Assembly: GCA_025839675.1 (NCBI GenBank)
Contig: CP104013.1
Coordinates: 1,890,001-1,922,000 of the forward strand
Source: Candidatus Lokiarchaeum ossiferum
Lineage (GTDB): Archaea > Asgardarchaeota > Lokiarchaeia > Sigyniarchaeales > Promethearchaeaceae
Length of the DNA: 32,000 bases
Direction of reading: 5' to 3'
The position numbers and the translations under genes were made by a program. Under the pieces are notes generated by a model. The model did no database searches and was not told the DNA's origin. It worked only from the letters and a program-made list of their open reading frames with translations. Shown here piece after piece: positions 7,762 to 32,000 of this stretch. The stretch's first letter is position 1; every line of letters starts with the position of its first letter.

Positions 7762-8109
7762 ATGGCATTCGAATATGAAAATGAAGTACAAAGTAAGGAT
7801 TTTTTCCAAAAACGATTGGTTAAAGATATCCAAGCAACAGATAATCAAGTAACTCTTACAGGATACGCCCGGAATCTTAATGCTAGTGATGAATTTAATT
7901 TAGATGACACAACGGGCCAAATCAATATTCGTGATATCCCAGATGAAACAGTCGCAATTAAAGAAGGAAAAATTTTTACGGTGTTAGGAAATGTATCCCT
8001 TGATGGGGCAGGAACCAAATTTATCTCGGCTCAGTTTATTCGAGATGCTGAAGGCATCAATTTTGAGTTATATCTTAAATCTATGGAGCTTTTCAAAAAG
8101 ATTATCTAA
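7762..8109 (+). CDS. small OB-fold protein, RPA14/RPA3-like (putative ssDNA-binding complex subunit)
   Basis: 115 aa. The beta-rich core (VTLTGYARNL...FNLDDTTGQINIRD...IKEGKIFTVLGNVS) fits an OB fold. It ends in a C-terminal helix (INFELYLKSMELFKK), as in small RPA subunits. Divergently transcribed from PCNA. Confidence 0.45.
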   Translation: MAFEYENEVQSKDFFQKRLVKDIQATDNQVTLTGYARNLNASDEFNLDDTTGQINIRDIPDETVAIKEGKIFTVLGNVSLDGAGTKFISAQFIRDAEGINFELYLKSMELFKKII

Positions 8110-11923: not shown

Positions 11924-12379
11924 TTATTTACCATTCATCGATTTCGCAATCGCTTTTTCTTCCTGCTGGATCATTTTCTGCAAATTTTTAATTTCCTTCA
12001 TCTGAAGTTTTGTTTCCCGGTTCAATTCGGAGTCGATGTTCTTAAGCAAATTTTGAGCATTTTTTTCTTGCGTCGTTAACGCTTTTATATAATTATTTTT
12101 GACTTCCTTATGGACTTGCTTCTTTTCCTTGAATGCTTCCTTTGCCGCAATATACGTCTCTTCAGCAGTAAGAAGATGGGTTTTTTTTGCATTTAGATCA
12201 TTTTCAATGTTTTCAACTTCTACCCCTTTGGTAGTTTTGATCTCATTGATTTTTGCTTCTTTATCCTTAATAGCAAGGTCATGTTTTTGGGAATATTGCA
12301 CCTTTAAGGATTCAATTTGTTGCTGAATTTTGGCGATATCAGCTTTATACCGATTGATGTTATCTTCACTCATAAGCAT
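11924..12379 (-). CDS. hypothetical coiled-coil protein
   Basis: 151-aa K/E/Q/N-rich ORF with heptad-like periodicity throughout. I recognise no family. Confidence 0.5.
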   Translation of the reverse strand: MLMSEDNINRYKADIAKIQQQIESLKVQYSQKHDLAIKDKEAKINEIKTTKGVEVENIENDLNAKKTHLLTAEETYIAAKEAFKEKKQVHKEVKNNYIKALTTQEKNAQNLLKNIDSELNRETKLQMKEIKNLQKMIQQEEKAIAKSMNGK

Positions 12380-12458: not shown

Positions 12459-13052
12459 TTATTCATTAATTTTTTGTTTTGAATTGAGATAAGCAAGAAT
12501 AATCGTTTCAAACTCATCTATCCACTGATTTCGAGCAATTAAAAGGGATTTTAATTCTGTCAAACTGCGAAATTCCACTTGACCTGCCATAAAATCCTCC
12601 AAGGTGTCATAAAACCATAAAAAACCATCGCTAACTTCTTCGACCATCATCTTTACACCAAATAGATTTGATACTTTTGATCCAAATTCATAATATTTGC
12701 GTAAGGGTTGTTTATAATTTGTAGAATATTTCAATATTAGATAAAGCTCCGTCTTAGATTTATTTTCTTGGACTTTTTCTTTTATTGGGATGGTTATTTC
12801 TCCCGTAGATATTTTTTCTAAAAGGGGATCAAATAAATCATAGCCTCGAGAATATTCTGTGATCAAAGAATCCATAGAATCGAAATCAATTCGAATATAG
12901 GGAGTTTCAGAATGGTTGATAATTTGACTATGGGCGCCAGGATTTTTTTGGAAGCGATTAATGATATTTTGGAGCAAAGTAAGTATAGGCTCTTGAGCGA
13001 ATGCAGAATAATGTTGTATTGAAATCTCAAGAAAAGGGTTTTCCTTTTGCAT
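12459..13052 (-). CDS. hypothetical protein
   Basis: 197-aa ORF with non-repetitive mixed alpha/beta-like composition. A TATA-like TTTTAAATA lies about 30 nt upstream of the ATG. I recognise no family. Confidence 0.5.
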   Translation of the reverse strand: MQKENPFLEISIQHYSAFAQEPILTLLQNIINRFQKNPGAHSQIINHSETPYIRIDFDSMDSLITEYSRGYDLFDPLLEKISTGEITIPIKEKVQENKSKTELYLILKYSTNYKQPLRKYYEFGSKVSNLFGVKMMVEEVSDGFLWFYDTLEDFMAGQVEFRSLTELKSLLIARNQWIDEFETIILAYLNSKQKINE

Positions 13053-14475: not shown

Positions 14476-14836
14476 TAATGTTCAACTCACGCATGACACA
14501 AGATGCAATTTCTTCAACTCCATGAAAAACCTTTTTTTCCGAAGTTTTCGAGTGGATTACATTCCCATGACACTAATTGAATTCTAATGTTTTGTAAAAT
14601 ATTTCATGTATTTTTAATTTTTTGATCTTGGGAAGTAAAAGTCTCCCCCTATTGACATAAATTAAAAAAAGCATTAAATTTTGCGAATATCGAAGTAAAA
14701 CAACAAAGTTTAATTAGATTCCTTGCTCGATGGAGAATTGATTACCGCAACAAATAAATATTTCGAGTAATGTCGGTATATTAGTGCTGTAATCAAAATG
14801 GTTAAAAAAAAATGTAACCTATATACTTTGGTTCAC

Positions 14837-15763
14837 ATGGAATTTTATAATCAAGATATAATTTCTGCAAAGCAATTTGATCGGGAAAAGGTCGAGAAAT
14901 TTATCAAATTGGCTAAGAAAATTGAAGCAAACAAGGAAAAATATTCCACACTTCTTAAAGGAAAAGTGATGGCAGCATTATTCTTTGAACCGAGCACCCG
15001 GACACGATTGTCCTTTGAAAGTGCATTTTCATATTTAGGTGGAAAAGTGATCGGATTTTCATCAGCAGGATCCTCTTCGGTGAAAAAAGGAGAAACTTTA
15101 GCCGATACAATCAGAACAGTGGCTAATTATGCAGATATTATTGTTATTCGACATTCGAAAGAAGGAGCTGCCAAATTAGCTCAACAATTTTCTGATGTTC
15201 CAATTATCAATGCAGGAAATGGGTCACAGGAACATCCAACCCAAGGATTACTCGATTGTTTGGCCATTCATGATTTAAAGGGCACTTTGGATGGATTAAA
15301 TGTAGGATTAATTGGTGATTTGAAATATGGTCGAACCGTGCATTCATTAGCTCACTTACTTTCTAATTTCAATAGTAACCTTTATTTCATCAGCCCTGAT
15401 CTTTTACAAATGCAATATCGAGTAAAAGATTCATTGCGATTGAAGAATAACAATTTTAAAGAAACAACTCAGTTTAAAGAAACACTTCCATTATTAGATG
15501 TCATATATATGACTCGGATTCAAAAAGAACGCTTTGGAGATTTGGAAGAATATGATAAAGTGAAAAATGCCTTCATTTTAACACCAAAAGAAATGAAATT
15601 AGTAAAAGATGATGCCATTATTTTACACCCACTCCCCCGAGTAAATGAAATTTCCCCCGAAATTGATAGCGATCCTCGAGCGAAGTATTTTGAACAAACT
15701 TACCATGGATTAATGATGCGAAAAGCTCTCTTGGCTTCAATTTTACTAAAAGAAATTGAATAA
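14837..15763 (+). CDS. pyrB: aspartate carbamoyltransferase catalytic subunit
   Basis: Carbamoyl-phosphate motif FFEPSTRTRLSFE, plus HPTQ and HPLPR motifs. The ORF track starts at 14798. The Met at 14837 (MEFYNQDIISAKQF) fits the family N-terminus better. Confidence 0.93.
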   Translation: MEFYNQDIISAKQFDREKVEKFIKLAKKIEANKEKYSTLLKGKVMAALFFEPSTRTRLSFESAFSYLGGKVIGFSSAGSSSVKKGETLADTIRTVANYADIIVIRHSKEGAAKLAQQFSDVPIINAGNGSQEHPTQGLLDCLAIHDLKGTLDGLNVGLIGDLKYGRTVHSLAHLLSNFNSNLYFISPDLLQMQYRVKDSLRLKNNNFKETTQFKETLPLLDVIYMTRIQKERFGDLEEYDKVKNAFILTPKEMKLVKDDAIILHPLPRVNEISPEIDSDPRAKYFEQTYHGLMMRKALLASILLKEIE

Positions 15764-15805
15764 CCTTTTTTTCTTTACGGATAAATAACACATAGGTTAT
15801 TCCCA

Positions 15806-17917
15806 ATGGTAAAGGAAAATGAATCTCCTACAAGCGCACTTGGAAAACACTTGGCCGTATTAAGCTCAGATATCCGATTGCAAATATTGCGAATTCTCTA
15901 TGAAACCCAATATCCTGTGGAATTTAATGAGATTCATAAAACCCTCCAATCCCATTTTTCAGAATTTGTTAATACATCCTATCATCTTAAGCGTTTAAAA
16001 AATATGGATCTAATTATCGGAGATGACAGAGGTTATCAATTAACAGATATCGGCTCACGTGCTTTCAGAAAGTTAGTAGATCTAGAAGACATCATATCAA
16101 CTGATCGAGTCATATATGTCCGTACTTCAAAATATTCTTTGGAACCTTTTGATGAGTCCATTATTGAATCAAACTTACAATTAGAAGCAAATATGACGGC
16201 AAAACAAGCTCAAACTATTGCCCAAGAAGCCCGAAAAAGATTGAAGAAAGCGAACATCACATATTTGACCACCCCTCTTATTCGGGAATATATTAATGCA
16301 ATCTTAATTGAAAACCAATATGAAGACTATCGTCACAAACTAACCCGTTTAGGATTGCCTCCTTATGATATTAATCAAATAATCTTCTCAGAACAAAAAA
16401 TGGATCCTGAAATATTGCGTTTGGATTTTGGCACGACAATTTTAGAGCAATATGTACTCTTAAACCAAATGCGACAGAAATTTGCAGATGATTTACTATC
16501 TGGACGATTTGTTCTCACAGATTTAGAACACTATGGGATATCACCACTAGAACTATTACTCCCGGGAACTCAGTTCACACATATTTTATATGCTTATTAT
16601 CTAACTACATTCACAGAAAATGAAATACAATCCATCTTCGATCTCCCTTTTCAAGATTTTTTATTTAACCTTACACGGTTTTTAGAGCAAATTTCACCCT
16701 TTTTTCCAAAAGGACTGACAATAATCCGATTTGATGAATTTGTATCACAATTTTTGAATTATTACACTCCGCAAGAATTGACCTATCTTATTAAATTTGG
16801 ATTTTTCGTTAAACAAAATATCTCTAAGTGGCCAATAATGTTAGGTATATCCTTAAAAGCCAATTTGATAGAAGTGGAAGCATTATTGCAAGCATATAGC
16901 GAAATTTCAAAGATACAGCAGAATAATCCTTTCCCTAAAATCCAAATTCATCACGGACATACGAAGTTTAAAGCCTTAACAAACACTTCTGATTTTACAG
17001 ATCTTAAACCCGTTTATCAACAAATAATTCAGCTCATGCAAAAACAGTCTTTAATCTTAAATCAATTTTCGCAATGGGGAAAACCGAATACAGAACATAT
17101 TTTTACGAATTTAAAAATTCCAATCAGCTTTGAATCGATGGAGGGGTTAAAACCTTCAATTGTTTTGGAAAAAATATCCATTAATGTCCTTAAAATCTAT
17201 TTAGAACATGGTACCGATGAAAAACAGTTCTTTTCAGAATTAGAAAAATCCGTCTTTCATATTTTTGATTACTTTGAACTTAAATCCAAAATATTAAAAA
17301 AAAACTTAGTTCACTTTCCAGGATGGCAAAGTATCAATACTTGGATATTCAACCAAAAAGATCCCTTTGTGGGATGGAAGGATCATCAAAAATATGCAAG
17401 CCACACCCCTTTAATATGTGGAGTATCATGTCATGGGTTAGACGAGTTAATATATCTGAAAACGGGATTATTTATCCGAGAACAGAGTCAAAATCGAAAA
17501 ATTGCATCGGATATTATTCAATTTATAAATTCTCTCCTCGAAAAACAAAATGACCACCTAAATTGCGAGATAAGATATGTTTTTAGTCAACTCCATTGTC
17601 AAAAGGAACTAGAACGTCCAACCAATCATATCTTAGATCAATATAAAGAAAAATTATCGGACCAACCTGAAGAAATCAAAGATGGATATCGCTATGGGTA
17701 CTGTGATACTCAAAAAATAATCTCCAATGATAATTTTAATCAAATTTATGCTGATTTGGTTGAATTAAAGAATCAGTTCATTTTAATCCAGAAATCTAAT
17801 CAATTTTTATCAAAAGAACAAACTGATAAAGAATTTTATTTAACCCTTAAAAATATACTTTCAACTGGAATATGTGGAATAGATGGCTCAGATATTCAAA
17901 AAATGGGATTACAATGA
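15806..17917 (+). CDS. winged-HTH / ATP-cone / class III ribonucleotide reductase (NrdD)-like protein, probably non-catalytic
   Basis: 703 aa. Residues ~14-95 look like an ArsR-type wHTH (IRLQILRILYETQYPVEFNEIHKTL...TSYHLKRLKNMDLI). Residues ~102-183 fit the ATP-cone pattern (VIYVRTSKYSLEPFDESIIESNL...AQTIAQEARKRL...LTTPLIREYINAILIE). The remainder shows NrdD-like blocks (LLSGRFVLTDLEHY vs G-x-IHIHDL; LEKISINVLKIYLE vs the NLPR block). I see no glycyl-radical motif and no C-terminal Zn ribbon. The CDS itself is secure. The function is inferred. Confidence 0.6.
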   Translation: MVKENESPTSALGKHLAVLSSDIRLQILRILYETQYPVEFNEIHKTLQSHFSEFVNTSYHLKRLKNMDLIIGDDRGYQLTDIGSRAFRKLVDLEDIISTDRVIYVRTSKYSLEPFDESIIESNLQLEANMTAKQAQTIAQEARKRLKKANITYLTTPLIREYINAILIENQYEDYRHKLTRLGLPPYDINQIIFSEQKMDPEILRLDFGTTILEQYVLLNQMRQKFADDLLSGRFVLTDLEHYGISPLELLLPGTQFTHILYAYYLTTFTENEIQSIFDLPFQDFLFNLTRFLEQISPFFPKGLTIIRFDEFVSQFLNYYTPQELTYLIKFGFFVKQNISKWPIMLGISLKANLIEVEALLQAYSEISKIQQNNPFPKIQIHHGHTKFKALTNTSDFTDLKPVYQQIIQLMQKQSLILNQFSQWGKPNTEHIFTNLKIPISFESMEGLKPSIVLEKISINVLKIYLEHGTDEKQFFSELEKSVFHIFDYFELKSKILKKNLVHFPGWQSINTWIFNQKDPFVGWKDHQKYASHTPLICGVSCHGLDELIYLKTGLFIREQSQNRKIASDIIQFINSLLEKQNDHLNCEIRYVFSQLHCQKELERPTNHILDQYKEKLSDQPEEIKDGYRYGYCDTQKIISNDNFNQIYADLVELKNQFILIQKSNQFLSKEQTDKEFYLTLKNILSTGICGIDGSDIQKMGLQ

Positions 17918-18780: not shown

Positions 18781-19224
18781 TTATCGAACTGCCCGTTCTT
18801 TCTTTCCTTTGATTAAAGCATCTAAACTGACACCATTAACTTTAACCACTTTCCATCGGATTCCAGGAAGATCCCCGACAGCACCACCCATAGCACCACC
18901 AATTCCAACAACTTGGACGGCATCGTGCTCTTCAACAAAAGTTAAAGCGGCATCACCAGGAAGGAATGCACTGACTTGTTTTCCATTTTTACGTAATTGA
19001 ACTCGGACGCATTTTCGAATAGCACTGTTTGGCTGTTTGGATTCGACTCCAATTTTTTCTAATACGATTCCTTCTGCCATAGGAGCGGCTTGAAGGGGAT
19101 CGGTCTTTTCTTTAATACGAAGAACTCTGCGTTTATAATTAACATCGCTCCAGCGGAATTTTTTCCGTTTATTCGCGAGGGCACGAGCTGCGTATTCGCC
19201 TTTTGGACTTTTTGTTCTTGCCAT
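18781..19224 (-). CDS. rps12: ribosomal protein uS12 (S12p/S23e)
   Basis: 147 aa. [31 protein letters not shown]-type core and [15 protein letters not shown]. Confidence 0.95.
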
Positions 19225-19257
19225 GTTTTAATCTCCAATTATTTAGTTTCCAAAAAA

Positions 19258-19623
19258 TTACTCAACAGCTTTTAAAATAGAAGAATCTCCTTCTTCTAAA
19301 ATTCCGATGGTTGAAACCCAAAAGGGTTTTCCACATGATGCCCCTAATTCCCAGGAGCTGTTCTTTGAAATGAAAACGGGAACAGGATTTTCTAAGCATC
19401 CATTAAGGAGGCTTATTTGATCTTTTACTTTTGTAGGTGTATTATTGGCGAGAACTAATAATTTTAATTCTCCCATCGATAATTCACGAATCACCGATTT
19501 TGCACCTAACAAAGTCTTCCCAGTCTTCACTGCAACATTAATCTCTTTGTTCTCATCGAACGAAGATTTTGCACTGGTTCGCTTTCTGCGCTTGAGTTTC
19601 TGCTGACCACGTTTGTAACTCAT
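19258..19623 (-). CDS. rpl30e: ribosomal protein eL30 (L30e)
   Basis: 121 aa. VKTGKTLLGAKSVIRELSMGELKLLVLANNTP...ELGASCGKPFWVSTIGILEEGDSSIL matches the L30e/L7Ae fold family. Its position after rpoA2 is canonical. It has a basic N-terminal extension of about 25 aa. Confidence 0.85.
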   Translation of the reverse strand: MSYKRGQQKLKRRKRTSAKSSFDENKEINVAVKTGKTLLGAKSVIRELSMGELKLLVLANNTPTKVKDQISLLNGCLENPVPVFISKNSSWELGASCGKPFWVSTIGILEEGDSSILKAVE

Positions 19624-24431: not shown

Positions 24432-27400
24432 TTAATCCCGATAAAATATGGCATCTTTCAATAAATTAGCATTATCCAAACAAATTTCAGCCATGTTCGC
24501 ATCTTTGGATTCATTTCTATGACGATCACATTCTTGGGAGAAATAGGTAATGGAATCATGCAAATCCGGAATTTTTTGGATAAGAATATCAATTTTTGTC
24601 CGTAAATTCAAAGCATTATCGGCATCCCCAATTTTACAATAAATATCTAAGATTTTCTGATAAGTAATTAAAGCATTAATCCAATCTTCCACTTTTTCAA
24701 AAGAAATGGCTTCTTCCATTAAAATTTCTTTGGACTGAATAAATCCGGCCCGCACTCCATCCATGGCCGTTTTCATTTCTCCATCTAGTTCATTCATTTT
24801 TTTGAGTAGATTATCAATATCGGAGTGATATTTCTTGATATTGGAATTTTCAGCGCCGATCCCGAACTTAAACAGAATATTCGAAATGAGTAATAACTTT
24901 GTATTAAGTTCAGTTTGCATGAATAAATCCTTCGCTTTGGTGGCCGTTTTCAATTCTTTCAACAAAAATTTCCGATATTCTATTAATGTCTCCTTGGTAT
25001 AATATTCCTTATCACAAACGGAATCCTCACAATATTTTAATGCTTCTCCAGAGCGCTTAACCAAATCTTTAATATTATCCTCTACTTCAATATACCCCAT
25101 CTTAAATAAACTGTGGGCCGCTTCAAGAGCAAGTTTAAACGCATTAAAAGCACTTTGAAATTCCTTTGCTTTCATGAATTTTTGCCCTTCTTTGGTCTTT
25201 TGTTTTAAGGTGGTTTTATATTTTGTCACCGTGTTGGATAGGACTAAATTTCCATAGGTCTTTCCGAGATTTTCCATATTCCATTGATAGGCAATTACTT
25301 CAGCAATTTCATAATTCCGAATAGCTTCATCAAATTCATGAGACTTAAGGGCTTTTTTCGCTAATTTATTCAATTCTTTAATTTCCTTGCGTGCATCACC
25401 CTCAGTTTCAAAGATTTTAGATTTGATGACTTCCCCAGTTGTTTCAGAAGTAATTGTTAGGGTTTGCGATAAGGATTGGATCGCCACATCTCGCTCCGCT
25501 TCAGATAGTTGTGTAACATCTGTTAAAATTTGCTGTTTTTCGTCCTCTGATTTATTCGGGATCGCCCAAACGCGTTCTCGAAGAGTACGCAGTTCTTGAT
25601 CAGTCAACGCCTGTTCTTCGAGAACATCCAACTTGATTGGAGTGAGGATTTTTGCATCTAAAAGTTCAGTAATAGATAAAATAATCTCTCCGGGTTGTTT
25701 TTTGGTCTGATCAATCGCGACTGAGAGAAGTTGAGCTAAGAACATGAAATTGCGTTCTTCGGTGATCAATGTCTTGGATATTTCCAAAATTTGTTTTGTT
25801 AGCGCCCGAGAAATTCCTTTCAACAATTTTGAATCAGCATTATACTGATGGGGTAAAATAACCGATGTATTCAAGATATCATCAATTAAATCGCCTGCAT
25901 CTGCAAAAGTATTAAGTTGACCACGCCATTTTTCTAATTTTGTATGATAATCGGCTTCAAACCTTCCAACAAATTTCGCTAAATTGCGCTTCATATAAGG
26001 TGAAGCAGATTTTCCTAGCACTAAAGTGACCCGAATAAACACACCATCGGAGAACAGTAAAATCTTATCACCATAAGATAGCTCATTTAACGATTTTTGA
26101 GATTTAATTTCTTTTCCAAAGGATTGCACAGCGGAGAGAAAACCTGAAATTAGATCTGGATCGAGTTCTTCTTCGGCAAAGGACTTGAAGAACAATGAAA
26201 CCCCTGTCGCCTTATGAATGATCATAATATGATGTAAATTAATCGCATCATCAAAGATCGTGGAGGAAGACATCACTAAATCAGTATAATGCATTTTTCT
26301 AGGAGCAATCACTTTCTTTTGCACAACTATTGCCAATGAAACACTCCCTACAAGAATCAACAATGCTGGAAGGAACCACGAAGGTAATATAGTCGGACTA
26401 ACAATTTTCGCACTAAAGGCTGATGCTTGATCACTTACTCCGTATAATTCACCTCCATATTCTATAGTTAAAACCAAATTCTGATAATCCCCTTGTGGAG
26501 CAATAAAAGTAAATACAACATGTCCGGTAGCATTTGTTACCCCTACAAGTACCGAGATTTCAGTTTTATTGGTCAGTAACCTTACATCCCCATCAATTAT
26601 TGGGTAACTAGTTGAACCATTCGTATAGGATAACTTGAATATGATATCATAGGATTCTCCTTGCACTAAAGTATCGGGCATGTATATTTTTTCAATTAGC
26701 ACCGCATACTCTCCAATAACCGTGATATTAAACGAATATGAAACAGTTTGACAGCTGGAGAGAGATAATTGGATTGTTATTGGCCCAGTTCCAATAACAA
26801 GTTCAGAAGATGAGATGAACCACCCATAGTTCCCACTGTTGCTTGAATTGAGAGCAATTAGTTCTCCATTATAATAACATGTAGCTATTGCACCACTAAG
26901 AAAGTTATCCGTCACACCATCAATATAAGTTATATTAAACTGAATCCCAAAAGGCGAAAAAACAACATAGGAGTTCTCACTATTTATTGAAATTAATCCA
27001 GTTTCTTGTTCAGGCTGAGAAATTCCGTAGAAATCGGATTTAGTTGGCAGTATTGTTAATGTGATATTAAAGGATACTGATTGATTAACATAATTCTTTA
27101 ATCCGATAAGGATGGATATATTGTAGGTACCTACTTCAAAATTAGCTGCATTAATTGTCCAACTATAAACGCCATTCTCAATTAATGGTGAAAGATAATT
27201 TTCTCCATCAAAGGTTAAATTGGTCAACTCTGCATTGGATATTCTCAGATTATTAGTTGAATCGAGGTATTCATAGGCAATAACTAAATCATAAGGCATA
27301 TAGACCGTATATCCCATAGTTTCTCCATTATAATCCAATCCTTGAGAGTGATGAGAAGGTTGGGAGATACTAATAAAATCAAAAGTGGTTTCTAAATAGA

Positions 27401-30400
27401 ACAAAGTCATATTAAACTGAATAGTTGCTGTTTCATATTCATTCAATGAAAATTGAATAGTAACATTAATCCATCCTAATCCGAATGATGATAAATTTGC
27501 AGAAGGAATAAACCATCCATATAAATTATTTGCGAAATAATTGGATGAAAATTGAGTACCATTTAGATATATATTGGAGGTTGCTCCAGCAATGTAAACA
27601 TTGTCAGCATCGTTGTAATAAGAAGCATTTATATGTAGCCCATATTGCATAAATACTCGATAACCAGCATTTGGATTTATTAATGCTAATGGAAAAGAAT
27701 TTCTTGTCGGTTGATATATATCTTCATCAAAATCTCCGTATGTTTCTAATAAAATTATATTCAAATTTGTTGAAACAGAAGCGTTGGTTAAAATGTCGTG
27801 TCCAAAATGAAATTCAATGGGATGAACTCCAAGACCAATACTGGTTAAATTTGAGACAGACAGCTTAAAACCAAATGTATGAGCAGAGGGATTAAACCAA
27901 TAAATTGAATAATTTGTATTTAAAAATTCTATAAATACCATCGATGGATCATCAATATATTGTAAATTCCCGAAATCATAGTACGATACATTGATATTCA
28001 TTTCATAATGCATATATACATCGTACGAACCACTTGTTGGACTAATGTTATTTGAACTTCGTGGAATTTGTTGTACCAATTCAACTTGGATATCTGTGGA
28101 TAATTCATTAACAGTAATGTTAAACGAATATTCAAAGTAATCATAATCGGTCGCATTGAATTGAAAAGTCAAATTGTATGTATTTTTTAATAATAGAATT
28201 TTGCTAATATTCCATGAATAAATTCCATTTTGAGTTGAAGTTCGAAAGAAATTTTGACCATTGAAAGTTAAATTAGCAGTATGAGCATCAATTATATTTA
28301 TACCATCTAAAGCATCAAAATAAGTGATGTTGATTAACAAATAATAATTATTATATACAATATATCCCTTAGCTGGATCAAGTAGATCAAAGTAATCGCA
28401 AGTATTACCATTGCGATCTGGTTGAGTAATTTCATCATTTAAATCCGCGCTAGTTGGAATGTTGGTGATTGTTATATTGAAAGAATATGTAACAGGATTA
28501 TAATCACTCAAGAAAAAAGTAATTGAGATATTTGATGTACCGAGTGGTAAATCAAGATTATCGATCACCCAAGTATATTGATCATTTGCATTAAATGACG
28601 GAGTATTGCTATAAAATACGCTATCAATGTATAAAGTTCCAGTAGCACCTGAAGGTACAAACACAGAATTATTCGTGTCAAAATATGTAACATTTACCAA
28701 AACATCATAATGAGTATAGGTAGTGAAGCCCAATTCGGGGCTTTGAAAAATGAGTAGATCATCATTTCGTTCTGGCTGAGATATGTGGTCAAATACAACA
28801 GATGTAGTTAAATTTCGCACATCAAGAGTAATGGTTATTGAAGTAGCATTTTCAAAATCTATTAGACCATAATAAAGAGTTATTGTATGTATTCCTATCG
28901 TTAACCATGATGATGGAACAGTATATAAATATGTGCCATCCCCATGATTGGTCATTGTATAATTATCCGAGCCATCCCATTCTAAATTGCGTAAACTAGC
29001 ATCTGCAACACCTGATGCAGTAAGGGTAGCGAGATAAGATCCTTCAATTTGAAGATCGTAATGTGCATATACAACATATTGCCCAGTCTCTTGATGCAAT
29101 TGATTTGCGGTATGATCTGTCTGTGTTATACTCGTATAAGTGGCAATAGTCTCTAAATCGAGAACTGTGATATTAAATGAAGTACTTGCATTTTGATAAT
29201 TATCAAAACTTACATCAATTGTAATATTATATTCTCCAGATGAATATCCCGTAAAATCAAGTGTACCTTCATTTCTAGTTCTTATTTGAACATAGCTAAA
29301 TGTAGCAGAAGCAATTGAGTTTGGAACACCATTAATATAAACAAAATAAGTGAAATCATCAAATTGAATAGCAGGTATATTAAGGCTTCCAGAATCTAGA
29401 TCAATATACTGAAAATTAACAGCTACACTACGATCTTGTTGAAATATTGAAAAATCATTTCCAGATCCAGTTAAAGTTGGTTCAGATAATCCAAGAGAGC
29501 CAATAGATGTAGCATTTCCTGATATATTGAATCCAACAAAAAGAATGCTAGTTAAATAATTTGGACTATAAGTTAAATTAATTCTAAGTAGATATTCACC
29601 AACATTAATTCTGGAAATTCCGCTTGAGCCCAATGAAACATTAACTAAGTAAGCACCATTACCTAAAGACCATAATCTGTAGGCTGACGTTTCATCCGTA
29701 GTCCAATTTGTATTACTTGTCCCTTCATATACATATAATGCACTATTAGGAACATCATTTAAACCTGAACTGATAGAAATATCATCCACATTTATGATTA
29801 TTGATAGATTTTTGTTGCTCGGACGTGAAATAACGGTATTATTTAAAGATACCAAAGATATTGCAGTTGACGCAGGAGTAGTTGTAATATTGAAAATAAA
29901 ATCTTGTGGTTGGTAATTACTTGCACTGATTGAAAAATTAAACAAGTATTCATTCACAATTGGAACGCTTGTATTTAATTCAATAGTATAATGGCCATTT
30001 GCAGACTCAACATAACTCCATTCAAATGAATCAATTTCATTCACGGAAATAAATGCATTTGAAATACCTTCTGTTGGCTGTGAAATATTGTAATATTGCA
30101 TTTCATAAGTAGCATTAATCCCTCTAATTGCATTGAAATCATTTGATGTAATATCTTGAACTTGGGTTGGATATTCTACTGTTAATTCATAAGTAAATGT
30201 ATGATTCATATATTTAGAATTGTTTATCATAATTGTGAGTACGTGATCACCTGCGGGATATGTTGAAGGATCGATAGTTACATTGTAGGTATTATCTGCA
30301 TTATTTTGAGCCGTATTTTCAACCCAACCCGAAATATCTGAAAATCCAATTGTTGCACCAGCAATATGGACAGGAGAATTAGTTATATCTTCATATGATA

Positions 30401-32000
30401 CAGAAATATTGAATGGAATGTCATTTGTATGAACAATAGAACCATTAGCGTGGGGACTACTAGTAGAATATTGTGAGACACCTGCAATGAAAACACTAGT
30501 ATCGTAAACTGAAACATCTGTTTCATTACTCCAAACCAATTGAACGCGAAAATCACCATACCCAGCAAGTGAACCCGCAGAAATATCCCAATCATCGAAG
30601 GTATTAACGGAAGTACTACTTCCTACCGATATTACTGGATTTGTTGTATACACCATTTCATCATTTACATCACTAGGATGATAAATAGTTAAATTTACGA
30701 TTCCGTTCAGATTTTCTATAAAAGTGGAATTTAATTCAAGAGTGCTATCAGAATAAGCAAAATAGGGTTCTGACAGTTCAACACCTCCTATACCAATTTT
30801 AATATCGGAAATAAAATTTGTAGAACTGCAAGTCAGTGTCCATTCTCCATTAACAGCACTAGCTCCATCTACAGTTATAATTTGGGACGTAGAATTCGAC
30901 CATATAGGTGTGTTCCATAAAACAGCACCACTTTTATCTAGGGATGTTGCAGTCCAACTTATGGGAATAGTAAAATTGATTGTTTCATATGAAAGATCTG
31001 AATCTGCACTAAGACTAGAAAAAGTTGAAGTGGAAGTCCAAGTGACATCATTACCATGATCAACCAAATATGATGTTGGAGCTTTAAATGATTGAGTATA
31101 ATTAACTGAAGTAAAATTAATATCTGCGGAATAATTCCCCCAATCAGAAGATACAATAAATTCAATATTACTAGAAGAGCAATATTCACCAATTGTATCC
31201 CAATAACCTGAATTGTGACTTGGGGAAGAAGTATTATTATTAACTGCAGTCCCATTTATAGTCAATCCAATAGATTCTGGGTCAGGAGCAGTCACACCTC
31301 CAAGATCTAATGTCACCTTAGTTAAAAAATCAACAGTATATGATTCAAATTCTGGAACGAATAAAATTCTTGGAACATCTAATTTAAAAGAGTCAGCTTC
31401 ATCCCCTTCAGTATCTTCAGATCCTCCTGAATCAGCACAATAGCGCCACCCCACAGCGAAACTATCATTATATGCCATTCGTATTCCAATAAACCATACG
31501 TTATTAACAGTATTAGAGCTAAGTAATTCTTGATTAAGATTTGTAAAATCAGCCCAGTAAGTTCCAGCTGCAGCATTTAAAGTAATACTATAATCAGAAG
31601 AAGTTAAAGCAGATTCTTTTGGAACATATCTTCCCAAGAGAGAATTCCATTCCCCACCATAAATGTGTAAATATAAATCTCCCATGTCGGTACCCGATTT
31701 AGAGATATAGAAGGATGCATCATCCAAATAGCAATCACCAGTAGTGTTGAAATTTATAACATATGTAGGAGCCAACCCAATAGGAACTACACTAAGAGGT
31801 GAAGAATCTTCAATATCATTCTGAATATCGTAAGCTTGAATATTATCAAAAGTAATATTTGTTTTTGAAGTGGTAAAACCTTGAGGAGCAGGACGACTAA
31901 AAGATGTATTAGTTTGATTAACTTCAAATAATGTAGTATTTTCGGTAGCTTGATGGAGAGTCACATTAACATTATTATAATCTCCTGAAAGAGAAGGAGA
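24432..32000 (-). CDS. giant single-pass membrane protein (partial): extracellular tandem Ig/beta-sandwich-like modules, cytoplasmic longin/roadblock-like domain and helical-repeat tail
   Basis: The frame is open from the TAA at 24432 to the window edge. The GTG at 31964 is only the first in-window start, and codons 31965-32000 are also open. At least 1,858 N/S/T/Y-rich residues contain dozens of N-x-S/T sequons and recurring ...SFNITV module ends. A single TM helix, WFLPALLILVGSVSLAIVV, spans 26322-26378 and is followed by QKK (positive-inside). The cytoplasmic region is 626 aa. Confidence 0.85.
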   Translation of the reverse strand, partial: SPSLSGDYNNVNVTLHQATENTTLFEVNQTNTSFSRPAPQGFTTSKTNITFDNIQAYDIQNDIEDSSPLSVVPIGLAPTYVINFNTTGDCYLDDASFYISKSGTDMGDLYLHIYGGEWNSLLGRYVPKESALTSSDYSITLNAAAGTYWADFTNLNQELLSSNTVNNVWFIGIRMAYNDSFAVGWRYCADSGGSEDTEGDEADSFKLDVPRILFVPEFESYTVDFLTKVTLDLGGVTAPDPESIGLTINGTAVNNNTSSPSHNSGYWDTIGEYCSSSNIEFIVSSDWGNYSADINFTSVNYTQSFKAPTSYLVDHGNDVTWTSTSTFSSLSADSDLSYETINFTIPISWTATSLDKSGAVLWNTPIWSNSTSQIITVDGASAVNGEWTLTCSSTNFISDIKIGIGGVELSEPYFAYSDSTLELNSTFIENLNGIVNLTIYHPSDVNDEMVYTTNPVISVGSSTSVNTFDDWDISAGSLAGYGDFRVQLVWSNETDVSVYDTSVFIAGVSQYSTSSPHANGSIVHTNDIPFNISVSYEDITNSPVHIAGATIGFSDISGWVENTAQNNADNTYNVTIDPSTYPAGDHVLTIMINNSKYMNHTFTYELTVEYPTQVQDITSNDFNAIRGINATYEMQYYNISQPTEGISNAFISVNEIDSFEWSYVESANGHYTIELNTSVPIVNEYLFNFSISASNYQPQDFIFNITTTPASTAISLVSLNNTVISRPSNKNLSIIINVDDISISSGLNDVPNSALYVYEGTSNTNWTTDETSAYRLWSLGNGAYLVNVSLGSSGISRINVGEYLLRINLTYSPNYLTSILFVGFNISGNATSIGSLGLSEPTLTGSGNDFSIFQQDRSVAVNFQYIDLDSGSLNIPAIQFDDFTYFVYINGVPNSIASATFSYVQIRTRNEGTLDFTGYSSGEYNITIDVSFDNYQNASTSFNITVLDLETIATYTSITQTDHTANQLHQETGQYVVYAHYDLQIEGSYLATLTASGVADASLRNLEWDGSDNYTMTNHGDGTYLYTVPSSWLTIGIHTITLYYGLIDFENATSITITLDVRNLTTSVVFDHISQPERNDDLLIFQSPELGFTTYTHYDVLVNVTYFDTNNSVFVPSGATGTLYIDSVFYSNTPSFNANDQYTWVIDNLDLPLGTSNISITFFLSDYNPVTYSFNITITNIPTSADLNDEITQPDRNGNTCDYFDLLDPAKGYIVYNNYYLLINITYFDALDGINIIDAHTANLTFNGQNFFRTSTQNGIYSWNISKILLLKNTYNLTFQFNATDYDYFEYSFNITVNELSTDIQVELVQQIPRSSNNISPTSGSYDVYMHYEMNINVSYYDFGNLQYIDDPSMVFIEFLNTNYSIYWFNPSAHTFGFKLSVSNLTSIGLGVHPIEFHFGHDILTNASVSTNLNIILLETYGDFDEDIYQPTRNSFPLALINPNAGYRVFMQYGLHINASYYNDADNVYIAGATSNIYLNGTQFSSNYFANNLYGWFIPSANLSSFGLGWINVTIQFSLNEYETATIQFNMTLFYLETTFDFISISQPSHHSQGLDYNGETMGYTVYMPYDLVIAYEYLDSTNNLRISNAELTNLTFDGENYLSPLIENGVYSWTINAANFEVGTYNISILIGLKNYVNQSVSFNITLTILPTKSDFYGISQPEQETGLISINSENSYVVFSPFGIQFNITYIDGVTDNFLSGAIATCYYNGELIALNSSNSGNYGWFISSSELVIGTGPITIQLSLSSCQTVSYSFNITVIGEYAVLIEKIYMPDTLVQGESYDIIFKLSYTNGSTSYPIIDGDVRLLTNKTEISVLVGVTNATGHVVFTFIAPQGDYQNLVLTIEYGGELYGVSDQASAFSAKIVSPTILPSWFLPALLILVGSVSLAIVVQKKVIAPRKMHYTDLVMSSSTIFDDAINLHHIMIIHKATGVSLFFKSFAEEELDPDLISGFLSAVQSFGKEIKSQKSLNELSYGDKILLFSDGVFIRVTLVLGKSASPYMKRNLAKFVGRFEADYHTKLEKWRGQLNTFADAGDLIDDILNTSVILPHQYNADSKLLKGISRALTKQILEISKTLITEERNFMFLAQLLSVAIDQTKKQPGEIILSITELLDAKILTPIKLDVLEEQALTDQELRTLRERVWAIPNKSEDEKQQILTDVTQLSEAERDVAIQSLSQTLTITSETTGEVIKSKIFETEGDARKEIKELNKLAKKALKSHEFDEAIRNYEIAEVIAYQWNMENLGKTYGNLVLSNTVTKYKTTLKQKTKEGQKFMKAKEFQSAFNAFKLALEAAHSLFKMGYIEVEDNIKDLVKRSGEALKYCEDSVCDKEYYTKETLIEYRKFLLKELKTATKAKDLFMQTELNTKLLLISNILFKFGIGAENSNIKKYHSDIDNLLKKMNELDGEMKTAMDGVRAGFIQSKEILMEEAISFEKVEDWINALITYQKILDIYCKIGDADNALNLRTKIDILIQKIPDLHDSITYFSQECDRHRNESKDANMAEICLDNANLLKDAIFYRD
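26718..29162 (-). repeat. seven tandem protein-level modules (113-119 aa each) within the giant ORF
   Basis: Hand-delimited from the translation, residues 935-1749 relative to the in-window start. Module lengths are 115, 117, 119, 119, 117, 115 and 113 aa. Each has an (I/V)xQP(x)R-like segment near its start, a G-Y-x-V-Y...Y-x-L-x-I-N-x-T-Y core and a Y-S-F-N-I-T-(V/I/L) end. The modules are divergent at DNA level, so this is not a nucleotide satellite. Confidence 0.8.

Follow-up and report, generated by a model that had tools for sequence, protein, structure and literature searches.

A candidate transcription regulator on a class III ribonucleotide reductase fold in Asgard archaea and Nitrososphaerota

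What is the role of a protein that resembles an anaerobic ribonucleotide reductase (RNR), begins with a DNA-binding domain and appears to have lost its chemistry? This question is raised by a gene located at 15806..17917 on the forward strand of a 32,000-nucleotide stretch of the Candidatus Lokiarchaeum ossiferum genome (contig CP104013.1, positions 1,890,001 to 1,922,000; hereafter the window). The gene and its relatives are denoted X, and residue numbers refer to the window protein. X is composed of an ArsR-like winged helix, an ATP-cone and a body with the fold of the class III reductase NrdD. It is probably, though by no means certainly, a transcription regulator of nucleotide metabolism (deoxyribonucleoside triphosphates, dNTPs, and pyrimidines) built from a catalytically dead class III RNR. 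Its parts are the following.

15806..17917, + strand: whole gene X, 703 amino acids from an ATG start, comprising winged helix, RTS-type ATP-cone and dead NrdD-like body (open-reading-frame list, Pfam, AlphaFold/Foldseek, family alignments)
15851..16069, + strand: ArsR-like winged helix-turn-helix, residues 16-88 (Pfam DUF7347, profile matches)
16112..16354, + strand: ATP-cone of the "RTS" subtype with linker, residues 103-183 (Pfam, invariant columns, match to the inner cone of Methanococcus vannielii)
16355..17914, + strand: NrdD-like alpha/beta-barrel body, residues 184-703 (Foldseek, bridged alignment, hallmark scoring)
17162..17584, + strand: segment with direct NrdD sequence similarity, residues 453-593 (hhalign; partial Pfam and NCBIfam NRDD matches)

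Domains and fold of the protein

Pfam placed the winged helix DUF7347 at residues 16-88 with 36.5 bits against a cutoff of 27.6 (E 6e-9), and a profile of 26 family members matched ArsR, CzrA and HxlR structures in the PDB with E-values of 4e-4 to 3e-3. The ArsR subfamily in NCBIfam gave 19.6 bits, which is under its cutoff of 55. The recognition helix carries the signature N56-x-S58-x-H60-L61 of the (N/S)xSxHL type, of which N56, S58, H60 and L61 are each at least 90% conserved in the family. These matches and this signature are shared with the ArsR/SmtB proteins; the classical members are, however, metal or metalloid sensors of ~100 amino acids that dimerise via their own helices, whereas the domain of X is an appendage on a 600-residue scaffold. 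The ATP-cone (PF03477) was detected at residues 103-175 with 29.4 bits against a cutoff of 25.8 (E 1e-6), and its modelled fold consists of a beta-hairpin cap (strands 104-106 and 112-114) and a four-helix bundle (helices 117-127, 132-148, 156-169 and 173-179). An ArsR-like N-terminus and the order of winged helix, ATP-cone and NrdD-like body had been proposed in a sequence-only reading of the window; the former is supported by the Pfam and ArsR/CzrA profile matches, and the latter by Pfam, the family profile and the AlphaFold model with its Foldseek matches.

The relationship of the body to NrdD is faint in the single sequence. Pfam gave NRDD (PF13597) for residues 455-584 only, at 22.8 bits under a cutoff of 26.2, and the NCBIfam equivalog TIGR02487 gave 22.9 bits against a cutoff of 326.35. 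The window protein alone had no match in the PDB, and the 26-member profile detected the NrdD structure 9d3x with an E-value of 0.005 over residues 458-588. An AlphaFold model was built on the family alignment with a mean pLDDT (predicted local distance difference test) of 82.7 and a pTM (predicted template modelling score) of 0.75, and it contains the ten-stranded alpha/beta barrel of the RNR/glycyl-radical-enzyme type. In the PDB, class III RNRs (S. thermophilus, P. copri, T. maritima and T4) made up the whole of the 36 best Foldseek matches of this model, with E-values down to 2.6e-15 over 575-728 aligned columns and an identity of 11-14%; below them came RNRs of classes I and II and other glycyl-radical enzymes. 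This indicates that the colinearity of the ~520-residue body with NrdD, which had been read earlier from blocks in the sequence, is real, and it is borne out mainly at the level of the fold and through intermediate sequences.

At the sequence level, hhalign aligned X confidently with E. coli-type and phage NrdDs for residues 453-593 only (probability 95%, E 3e-8), where EKISINVLKIYLEHGTDEKQFF of X pairs with GVISLNLPRIALEAKGDEATFW of NrdD. A loosened run was collinear with NrdD over a stretch that starts at the cone and reaches about residue 654 of the E. coli protein. A full residue mapping needed the methanococcal NrdD and intermediates, such as the Jordarchaeial protein P0157, which shares 38% identity with true NrdD over 86% of its length and made possible a bridged alignment of X to the intact NrdD of M. 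vannielii (WP_012066053). The NrdD core alone, used as a tblastn query, also finds X in 64 loci. N460 and G544 are invariant with true NrdD included, and F475, K493 and W507 are further invariant positions of the X body.

The bridged alignment also bears on the origin of the fusion. The methanococcal NrdD carries tandem cones, a canonical outer one (VVKRSGNEESF) followed by an "RTS" inner one (IRTSEKEFESF). The cone of X and its linker match the inner cone of M. vannielii column for column, and the winged helix sits where the outer cone lies; the ArsR-type winged helix has taken the place of the outer cone of a Methanococcus-type tandem-cone NrdD ancestor. X resembles this M. vannielii enzyme in the fold over the whole body, in intermediates of up to 38% identity and in a common ISxNL..(I/L)A..beta-strand/helix block. 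It differs in having a winged helix in place of the outer cone and in lacking NxN, HxHD, both cysteines, the beta6 Asn, TPxE, the Zn ribbon and the glycyl-radical domain. X is hence a homolog of NrdD and not a functional member, with a body that keeps the NrdD fold without the NrdD chemistry.

Loss of reductase chemistry across the family

The catalytic state was scored at 13 hallmark positions in 230 sequences, of which 226 bear the winged helix (140 close Asgard members and 86 distant ones), using the intact M. vannielii NrdD as the reference of the bridged alignment. The defining motifs, including the NxN flap and the triphosphate-binding HxHD motif, were taken from the study of the P. copri NrdD structure (PMC11226230). 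Intact archaeal NrdDs of the M. vannielii type (P0247 and P0300) were recovered, with many intermediates, by an exhaustive profile search. In the bridged alignment, the reference and the window protein read as follows.

NxN flap: DNAN in the intact NrdD, deleted in the window protein
HxHD: HLHD in the intact NrdD, VLTD in the window protein
Cys pair (E. coli C175 position): CC in the intact NrdD, LL in the window protein
Radical loop: MGCRT in the intact NrdD, PISFE in the window protein
Beta6 Asn (T4 N311): TGN in the intact NrdD, SIV (Val453) in the window protein
TPxE: TPAE in the intact NrdD, lost in the window protein
Zn ribbon and RITGY: present in the intact NrdD, absent from the window protein

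The intact NrdDs keep 13 of the 13 positions and the best winged-helix-bearing member keeps 5. The radical Cys, the beta6 Asn, the second His of HxHD, the glycyl-radical Tyr and the Zn ribbon are each found in 0/140 close Asgard members. The column of M. vannielii C452, the radical-loop thiyl Cys (E. coli C384, P. copri C416), likewise holds Cys in 0/140; the window residue there depends on the alignment, being Ser in the bridged one and Leu in that of 230 sequences. An alignment-independent check of 118 full-length members gave no conserved Cys column (the top column reaches 75%, at a non-catalytic site that is Thr in the window), no RxCGY-type glycyl-radical motif (0/118, X ending before that region) and no C-terminal CxxC..CxxC Zn ribbon (0/118). 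The block FVLTDLEHY aligns with H-x-H-D-L-x-Y of NrdD. The altered HDL-type block, the missing glycyl-radical motif and Zn ribbon, and the lack of a thiyl-Cys context that had been noted from the window sequence were therefore all upheld, as was the view of a catalytically dead protein. Judging from these alignments, every catalytic and substrate-binding motif of NrdD is lost, and X is not an enzyme.

Many database entries nevertheless carry the name of an active enzyme, given by PGAP and IMG, and the NrdD fold agrees with such names. An ordinary or unusual active anaerobic RNR is, however, refuted at the sequence level by the 0/140 counts above, by the deleted NxN flap and by an NCBIfam NrdD score (22.9 bits) far from its cutoff, and it retains practically no chance. 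An active fusion of winged helix and NrdD was not found among the 226 winged-helix-bearing representatives. The loss of all catalytic motifs might equally suggest a decaying, pseudogene-like relic without function, but the reading frame is intact across hundreds of genomes, residues are invariant over phyla even in the dead body (N460, F475, K493, W507 and G544), and both the genomic position and promoter blocks are conserved. This conservation already refutes a functionless relic, to which we assign a negligible probability.

X is a large family. A word-index search gave 428 homologs, and the exhaustive profile search gave 266 clusters (50% identity) at E<1e-30 and 702 at E<1e-10; with 428 homologs and 266 such clusters, chance is no explanation for the features of X. 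Relatives occur in 274 species-representative genomes. The Asgard sources are Loki/Promethearchaeia (including the cultured Promethearchaeum syntrophicum MK-D1), Thor-, Hermod-, Hod-, Odin-, Hel-, Baldr- and Jord/Freyarchaeota, and the others are Nitrososphaerales, Nitrososphaeraceae and Conexivisphaerales. A metagenome scan added at least 542 further stretches of the Nitrososphaerota branch.

The members form a graded series. It starts from the intact tandem-cone NrdD and passes through forms with winged helix, RTS cone and dead core that still hold a Zn ribbon and a vestigial radical tail (RISGM, RLTGAY, NIGPY) in Jord, Baldr, some Thor and Nitrososphaerota. It ends in the fully stripped forms of Loki, Thor, Hermod, Hod, Odin and Hel, including that of the window. 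The Zn ribbon is kept in 58/86 distant members (Jord, Baldr and Nitrososphaerota) compared with 0/140 close ones, which points to stepwise loss. A separate dead double-cone form of NrdD without a winged helix was found in the metagenomic P0236 (691 amino acids) and P0246 (695 amino acids). These two have a canonical-like outer and an RTS inner cone and lack the radical Cys, the Zn ribbon and the glycyl-radical tail; P0236 keeps HIHD.

The databases name X variously "anaerobic ribonucleoside-triphosphate reductase", "ArsR family transcriptional regulator", "DUF7347 domain-containing protein" or "hypothetical protein". The sequence-only reading had known of no described fusion of winged helix and NrdD. 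This stands insofar as no published description was found: the searchable literature gave none of a winged-helix or helix-turn-helix protein with ATP-cone and NrdD-like body, of DUF7347, of an RNR pseudoenzyme in archaea, or of any RNR-derived pseudoenzyme. A singular fusion does not stand, given the large family present in databases under conflicting names. In one preprint an uncharacterised Promethearchaeota "nrdD" is named as a site where Tn7 attaches; this gene may or may not belong to the X family.

Neighbouring genes and candidate operators

X is tightly linked to nrdJ, to pyrB, or to both. In Nitrososphaerota, a class II RNR gene (nrdJ; Ribonuc_red_lgN/lgC and TSCPD) lies directly downstream of X on the same strand in 53 of the 56 loci with enough sequence, and ~1 kb downstream in the remaining 3. 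In 19 more divergent Nitrososphaerota loci the order is X-> nrdJ-> <-pyrB. The RNR that follows X has an N-terminal ATP-cone of its own in divergent and marine-type loci (L143 and L176; VKKRDGRVVPFDRSKI in L176). In a peat/soil group of Nitrososphaerota, the RNR is without an ATP-cone and begins ~160 nucleotides after X.

Candidate operators were found in the same loci. Palindromes of the TTGAC-N5-GTCAA type and TGTCAAC half-sites flank TATA-like boxes upstream of X and in the spacer between X and nrdJ. Their density is 1.38 per kb in Nitrososphaerota regulatory regions compared with 0.10 per kb elsewhere, the N5 spacer is present in 41/47 palindrome matches, and the sites stand at constant distances, about -55 from X and about -139 from nrdJ. 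Such a placement is that predicted for a dimeric winged-helix autoregulator of nrdJ.

In Asgard archaea the constant neighbour is pyrB, which adjoins X in 78/80 loci, the 2 exceptions being contig ends. Like nrdJ in Nitrososphaerota, this neighbour speaks for a regulatory role of X in nucleotide metabolism. Most loci are arranged as S12->S7->X-> <-pyrB L44e->, and the MK-D1-like clade that includes the window as L44e<- pyrB->X->. In Baldrarchaeota and Helarchaeota, X stands beside pyrB amid unrelated neighbour genes, so the pairing is not merely inherited synteny. From the order in the 19 divergent Nitrososphaerota loci, the convergent X and pyrB of most Asgard genomes look like an X-nrdJ-pyrB cluster minus the RNR. 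The elements upstream of X in the window are these.

14837..15763, + strand: pyrB, aspartate carbamoyltransferase (ATCase) catalytic chain (Pfam OTCace_N and OTCace), directly upstream of X and co-directional
15764..15805, + strand: pyrB-X spacer of 42 nucleotides, with an oligo-T run at 15766-15776 and a conserved TAGGTTATTCCCA before the ATG

The pyrB reading frame opens at 14798; by the orthologous loci L177 and L178, its true start is likely 14837 (MEFYNQ..., 308 amino acids), and the first 13 codons (14798-14837) are probably not translated. A footprint of the spacer against orthologs of 81% and 63% identity showed conservation of the oligo-T run after the pyrB stop and of a stretch before the ATG that contains a Shine-Dalgarno-like AGGT (15794-15797), which fits co-transcription of X with pyrB by read-through.

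Two further elements of this clade were considered and set aside. The spacer contains a perfect palindrome, AATAAC-N6-GTTATT (15784-15801), which was rejected as an operator of X: its near-matches are not enriched (8 versus 4.9 +/- 2.2 expected), the 81% and 63% orthologs do not preserve its left arm, and short inverted repeats are abundant in the AT-rich DNA of the window. Upstream of pyrB, ATTAATCGATTAAT was the candidate for a deeply conserved motif. It is a perfect 14-bp palindrome abutting the TATA-like TTAATATAT at about -95 to -80 from pyrB in L008, L010 and L013 (Promethearchaeum spp.). No other species share it, and these three are so closely related that it is indistinguishable from inherited sequence; the 81% ortholog is uninformative here because the intergenic DNA is 96% identical.

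The majority Asgard clade (L016-L087) has three blocks in the S7-X spacer that are 80-99% conserved over Thor-, Hermod-, Hod-, Odin- and Loki-labelled genomes: ATATCACC-N3-ATATTATC about 120 nucleotides upstream of X, a box resembling the TFB recognition element (BRE) and TATA, and ATATTATTTAGTTAAG near the expected transcription start. The blocks span about -130 to -35 nucleotides from the X start, read as ATATCACC-N3-ATATTATC, TTCCTAAATTTTTATATA and ATATTATTTAGTTAAGCAGATTTAAAG, and are absent from the window. ATATCACC-N3-ATATTATC was found in 63/71 majority-clade loci, with one other match in ~0.9 Mb. No Rfam family was detected in the window, L022 or L036, so known RNA does not explain the conserved blocks; the window also contains no tRNA. 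The start codon of X in this clade is often GTG or TTG.

The pairing with pyrB could also mean that X is a protein partner of nucleotide enzymes, for example an allosteric or scaffold subunit of RNR or of ATCase, standing in for PyrI, with the winged helix used for protein contacts. The near-universal adjacency to pyrB would fit this, and the arrangement pyrB->X in the clade of the window is operon-like. Outside Baldrarchaeota, a pyrI gene was found within 6 kb of X nowhere in the ~1 Mb of Asgard loci, and none stands beside pyrB in the window or in the Loki, Thor, Hermod, Hod and Odin loci (L008-L087); the matches listed by a database search for PyrI in Loki and Thor genomes were from Bathyarchaeia. 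A dead-enzyme partner of ATCase has a precedent in Pseudomonas PyrC'. The replacement of PyrI is, however, weakened by Baldrarchaeota, which hold X, pyrB and a genuine pyrI beside pyrB together (L094:9350-9817), and Pfam detected neither of the PyrI domains PF01948 and PF02748 in X. A partner role is further opposed by the convergent arrangement of X and pyrB, which are not co-transcribed in most genomes, by the conserved ArsR-type recognition-helix signature and by the palindromic motifs at promoters of relatives. We regard it as quite improbable.

The DNA of the window is low in GC (~30-39%), and X lies within an information-processing block of eIF2-alpha, GINS, both primase subunits, PCNA, TFS and L44e, then pyrB and X, with S7, S12, L30e, RpoA'' and RpoA' on the opposite strand. 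Other features of the window, of which the last three lie inside this conserved block, were recorded as follows.

24432-31964, - strand: 2,510-residue reading frame with a GTG start, Ser/Thr/Asn/Ile-rich and without a Pfam match at E<=1e-4; the product resembles a giant protein of the surface or adhesin type, and the gene lies immediately upstream of rpoA', where rpoB might be expected
7762-8109, + strand: protein of ~115 residues beside PCNA with a weak, sub-threshold match to Ten1_2 (telomere-capping CST subunit, OB fold); a similar small protein recurs at the same position in other Asgard genomes (L003:422-769, L006:3498-3854)
19224-19258: L30e and S12 stand 34 nucleotides apart, with no KH/NusA-like gene between them; a small KH-domain NusA-like gene is found there in the majority-clade locus L004 (4064-4552)
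8147-9451, - strand: reading frame of 434 amino acids without a Pfam family
11924-12379, - strand: reading frame of 151 amino acids without a Pfam family
12459-13052, - strand: reading frame of 197 amino acids without a Pfam family

The ATP-cone and the proposed regulation

Conservation in the family is highest in the cone and its linker. Invariant residues are R106, T107, S108, K109, Y110, E113, F115, Y153, T155, P157, R160, E161, N164 and E169 in the cone, R176, H177, K178, L179, T180, R181, L182, G183, P185 and P186 in the linker (RHKLTRLGxPP), and E214, Q215, L218, L219, N220, A227, D228 and G233 in the first core helices (EQxxLLN/ADxxLxG). R-T-S..E-x-F and the RHKLTRLGxPP linker show no variation among Asgard archaea, Nitrososphaerota and true NrdD, and R-T-S and E-x-F are retained in 139-140 of the 140 close members. 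The cone and linker are thus under strong purifying selection, and the invariance of RTS argues against a simple decay of the cone. The body had earlier been suggested to serve as a ligand-sensing domain. Its description as a dead RNR scaffold holds, but the sensing part is not supported, since the active-site motifs are gone, the loop-2 region looks eroded in the clade of the window, and conservation is focused on the cone, on the linker that joins it to the core and on the first helices of the core. The NrdD-like body is better read as a dimerisation scaffold.

A mechanism for a regulator may be proposed from these parts. The body would dimerise as NrdD does and present two winged helices to a palindromic operator, and the cone-linker module would be the switch, for an effector or for oligomerisation, that alters DNA binding. 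Adenine nucleotides are the most plausible effector, although we give them less than an even chance within the regulator reading. In Nitrososphaerota the targets would be the adjacent class II RNR gene and the promoter of X itself. In Asgard archaea the RNR would have left the cluster and X stayed beside pyrB, and in the window transcription of pyrB probably reads through the oligo-T tract into X. X would then work like bacterial NrdR, with different parts.

Several points weigh against this interpretation, and the first group concerns the cone. The canonical contacts in NrdR of S. coelicolor are V48, K50, R51, E56, F58 and K62 (PMC9110341), and the corresponding residues of X, anchored on E-x-F, are V105, T107, S108, E113, F115 and I119. 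Throughout the family, the phosphate-binding Lys-Arg pair is hence replaced by an invariant Thr-Ser that stands between R106 and K109. The outer-site Lys is retained in 109/140 members and is Ile in the subclade of the window. Furthermore, the cone of X is the counterpart of an inner cone, and inner cones of tandem arrays are often non-binding, with more variation at ligand contacts and with binding lost in P. aeruginosa NrdA (Burnim et al. preprint). The region of residues ~102-183 is accordingly an ATP-cone, as had been predicted, but not a canonical (d)ATP-binding one.

These substitutions and the inner-cone origin speak for a rival reading, in which X would bind DNA as a regulator with a degenerate, structural cone that binds no nucleotides, acting constitutively or sensing something else through other sites, for example a remnant pocket of the barrel or the conserved EQxxLLN/ADxxLxG helices. 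However, RTS is invariant in the active enzyme of Methanococcus as well as in hundreds of sequences that have diverged, which is the opposite of relic decay. The adenine-reading Glu and Phe are kept in 139/140 members, and R106, K109 and the Thr/Ser hydroxyls could still bind phosphates. A degenerate cone therefore seems fairly unlikely to us, and nucleotide sensing by the cone of X is plausible yet unproven, given the replaced Lys-Arg pair and the often non-binding inner cones.

The second group concerns the loci. A genuine RNR was found within 6 kb of X in none of the Asgard loci (~1 Mb), and the convergent X and pyrB of the majority Asgard clade are an untypical layout for a regulator and its target. 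In that clade, the promoters of X and pyrB had only A/T-only promoter words in common, the X blocks preceded pyrB in no more than 1 of 71 loci, and no conserved operator was found in the clade of the window. A link to the pyrB promoter, as had been suggested earlier, thus gained no motif support from the comparison in the majority clade or from the footprint in the clade of the window. Part of the motif conservation in Nitrososphaerota may also be inherited, as the loci are related to one another, and both DNA binding and ligand binding by X are features that we infer.

The comparison with NrdR is the closest one for the proposed regulator. NrdR consists of a Zn ribbon and an ATP-cone and represses RNR genes, its nucleotide state setting its oligomer state and thereby its DNA binding (PMC9110341). 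The two have in common a small DNA-binding domain with an ATP-cone, a gene beside RNR genes (for X, in the Nitrososphaerota relatives), candidate operators in or close to the region of TATA box and transcription start in both the regulator gene and the RNR gene, and the proposed logic from nucleotide state through oligomer state to DNA binding. In contrast, X has an ArsR-type winged helix where NrdR has the Zn ribbon, and its 703 residues include a dead NrdD body of ~520 amino acids that the ~150-residue NrdR lacks. The cone of X has Thr-Ser at the phosphate contacts Lys50-Arg51 of NrdR, and X is archaeal (Asgard and Nitrososphaerota), with pyrB and no RNR as its neighbour in the window. X thus fails the defining architecture of NrdR and is not a member of its family. 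The NrdR-like role that had been put forward for X gains real, if indirect, support from nrdJ downstream and from the palindrome common to the X and nrdJ promoters in Nitrososphaerota; in the window and the other Asgard loci, no genuine RNR lies within 6 kb of X. X also resembles pseudoenzymes and enzyme-derived regulators, in which the fold is kept for scaffolding or allostery after the loss of catalysis, with PyrC' as an example. If the regulator reading holds, it would be an ATP-cone-bearing regulator and an enzyme-derived pseudoenzyme at once.

The naming of X has consequences of its own. Being routinely called "anaerobic ribonucleoside-triphosphate reductase", in Nitrososphaerales too, it can mislead inferences on metabolism and oxygen lifestyle as well as censuses of RNRs in Asgard archaea and in relatives of ammonia oxidisers. 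The RTS cone that X shares with active methanococcal NrdDs points to an unstudied cone subtype, even in enzymes, and the graded series records how an enzyme becomes a regulator. The regulation of RNR and dNTPs in archaea is largely unknown and NrdR is mostly bacterial, so that X is a conserved candidate regulator with predicted operators that can be tested directly. It is possible, though we hold this wider proposal only tentatively, that the X family is the counterpart of NrdR so far missing from archaea. It would be a master regulator that arose from a class III RNR turned sensor and governs the supply of DNA precursors in Asgard archaea and in relatives of ammonia oxidisers. If so, cone-linker allostery, freed from catalysis, would read nucleotide pools and drive the winged helix on and off DNA, and the position of X beside pyrB in the transcription, translation and replication block of Asgard archaea would couple the supply of pyrimidines and dNTPs to the core of information processing.

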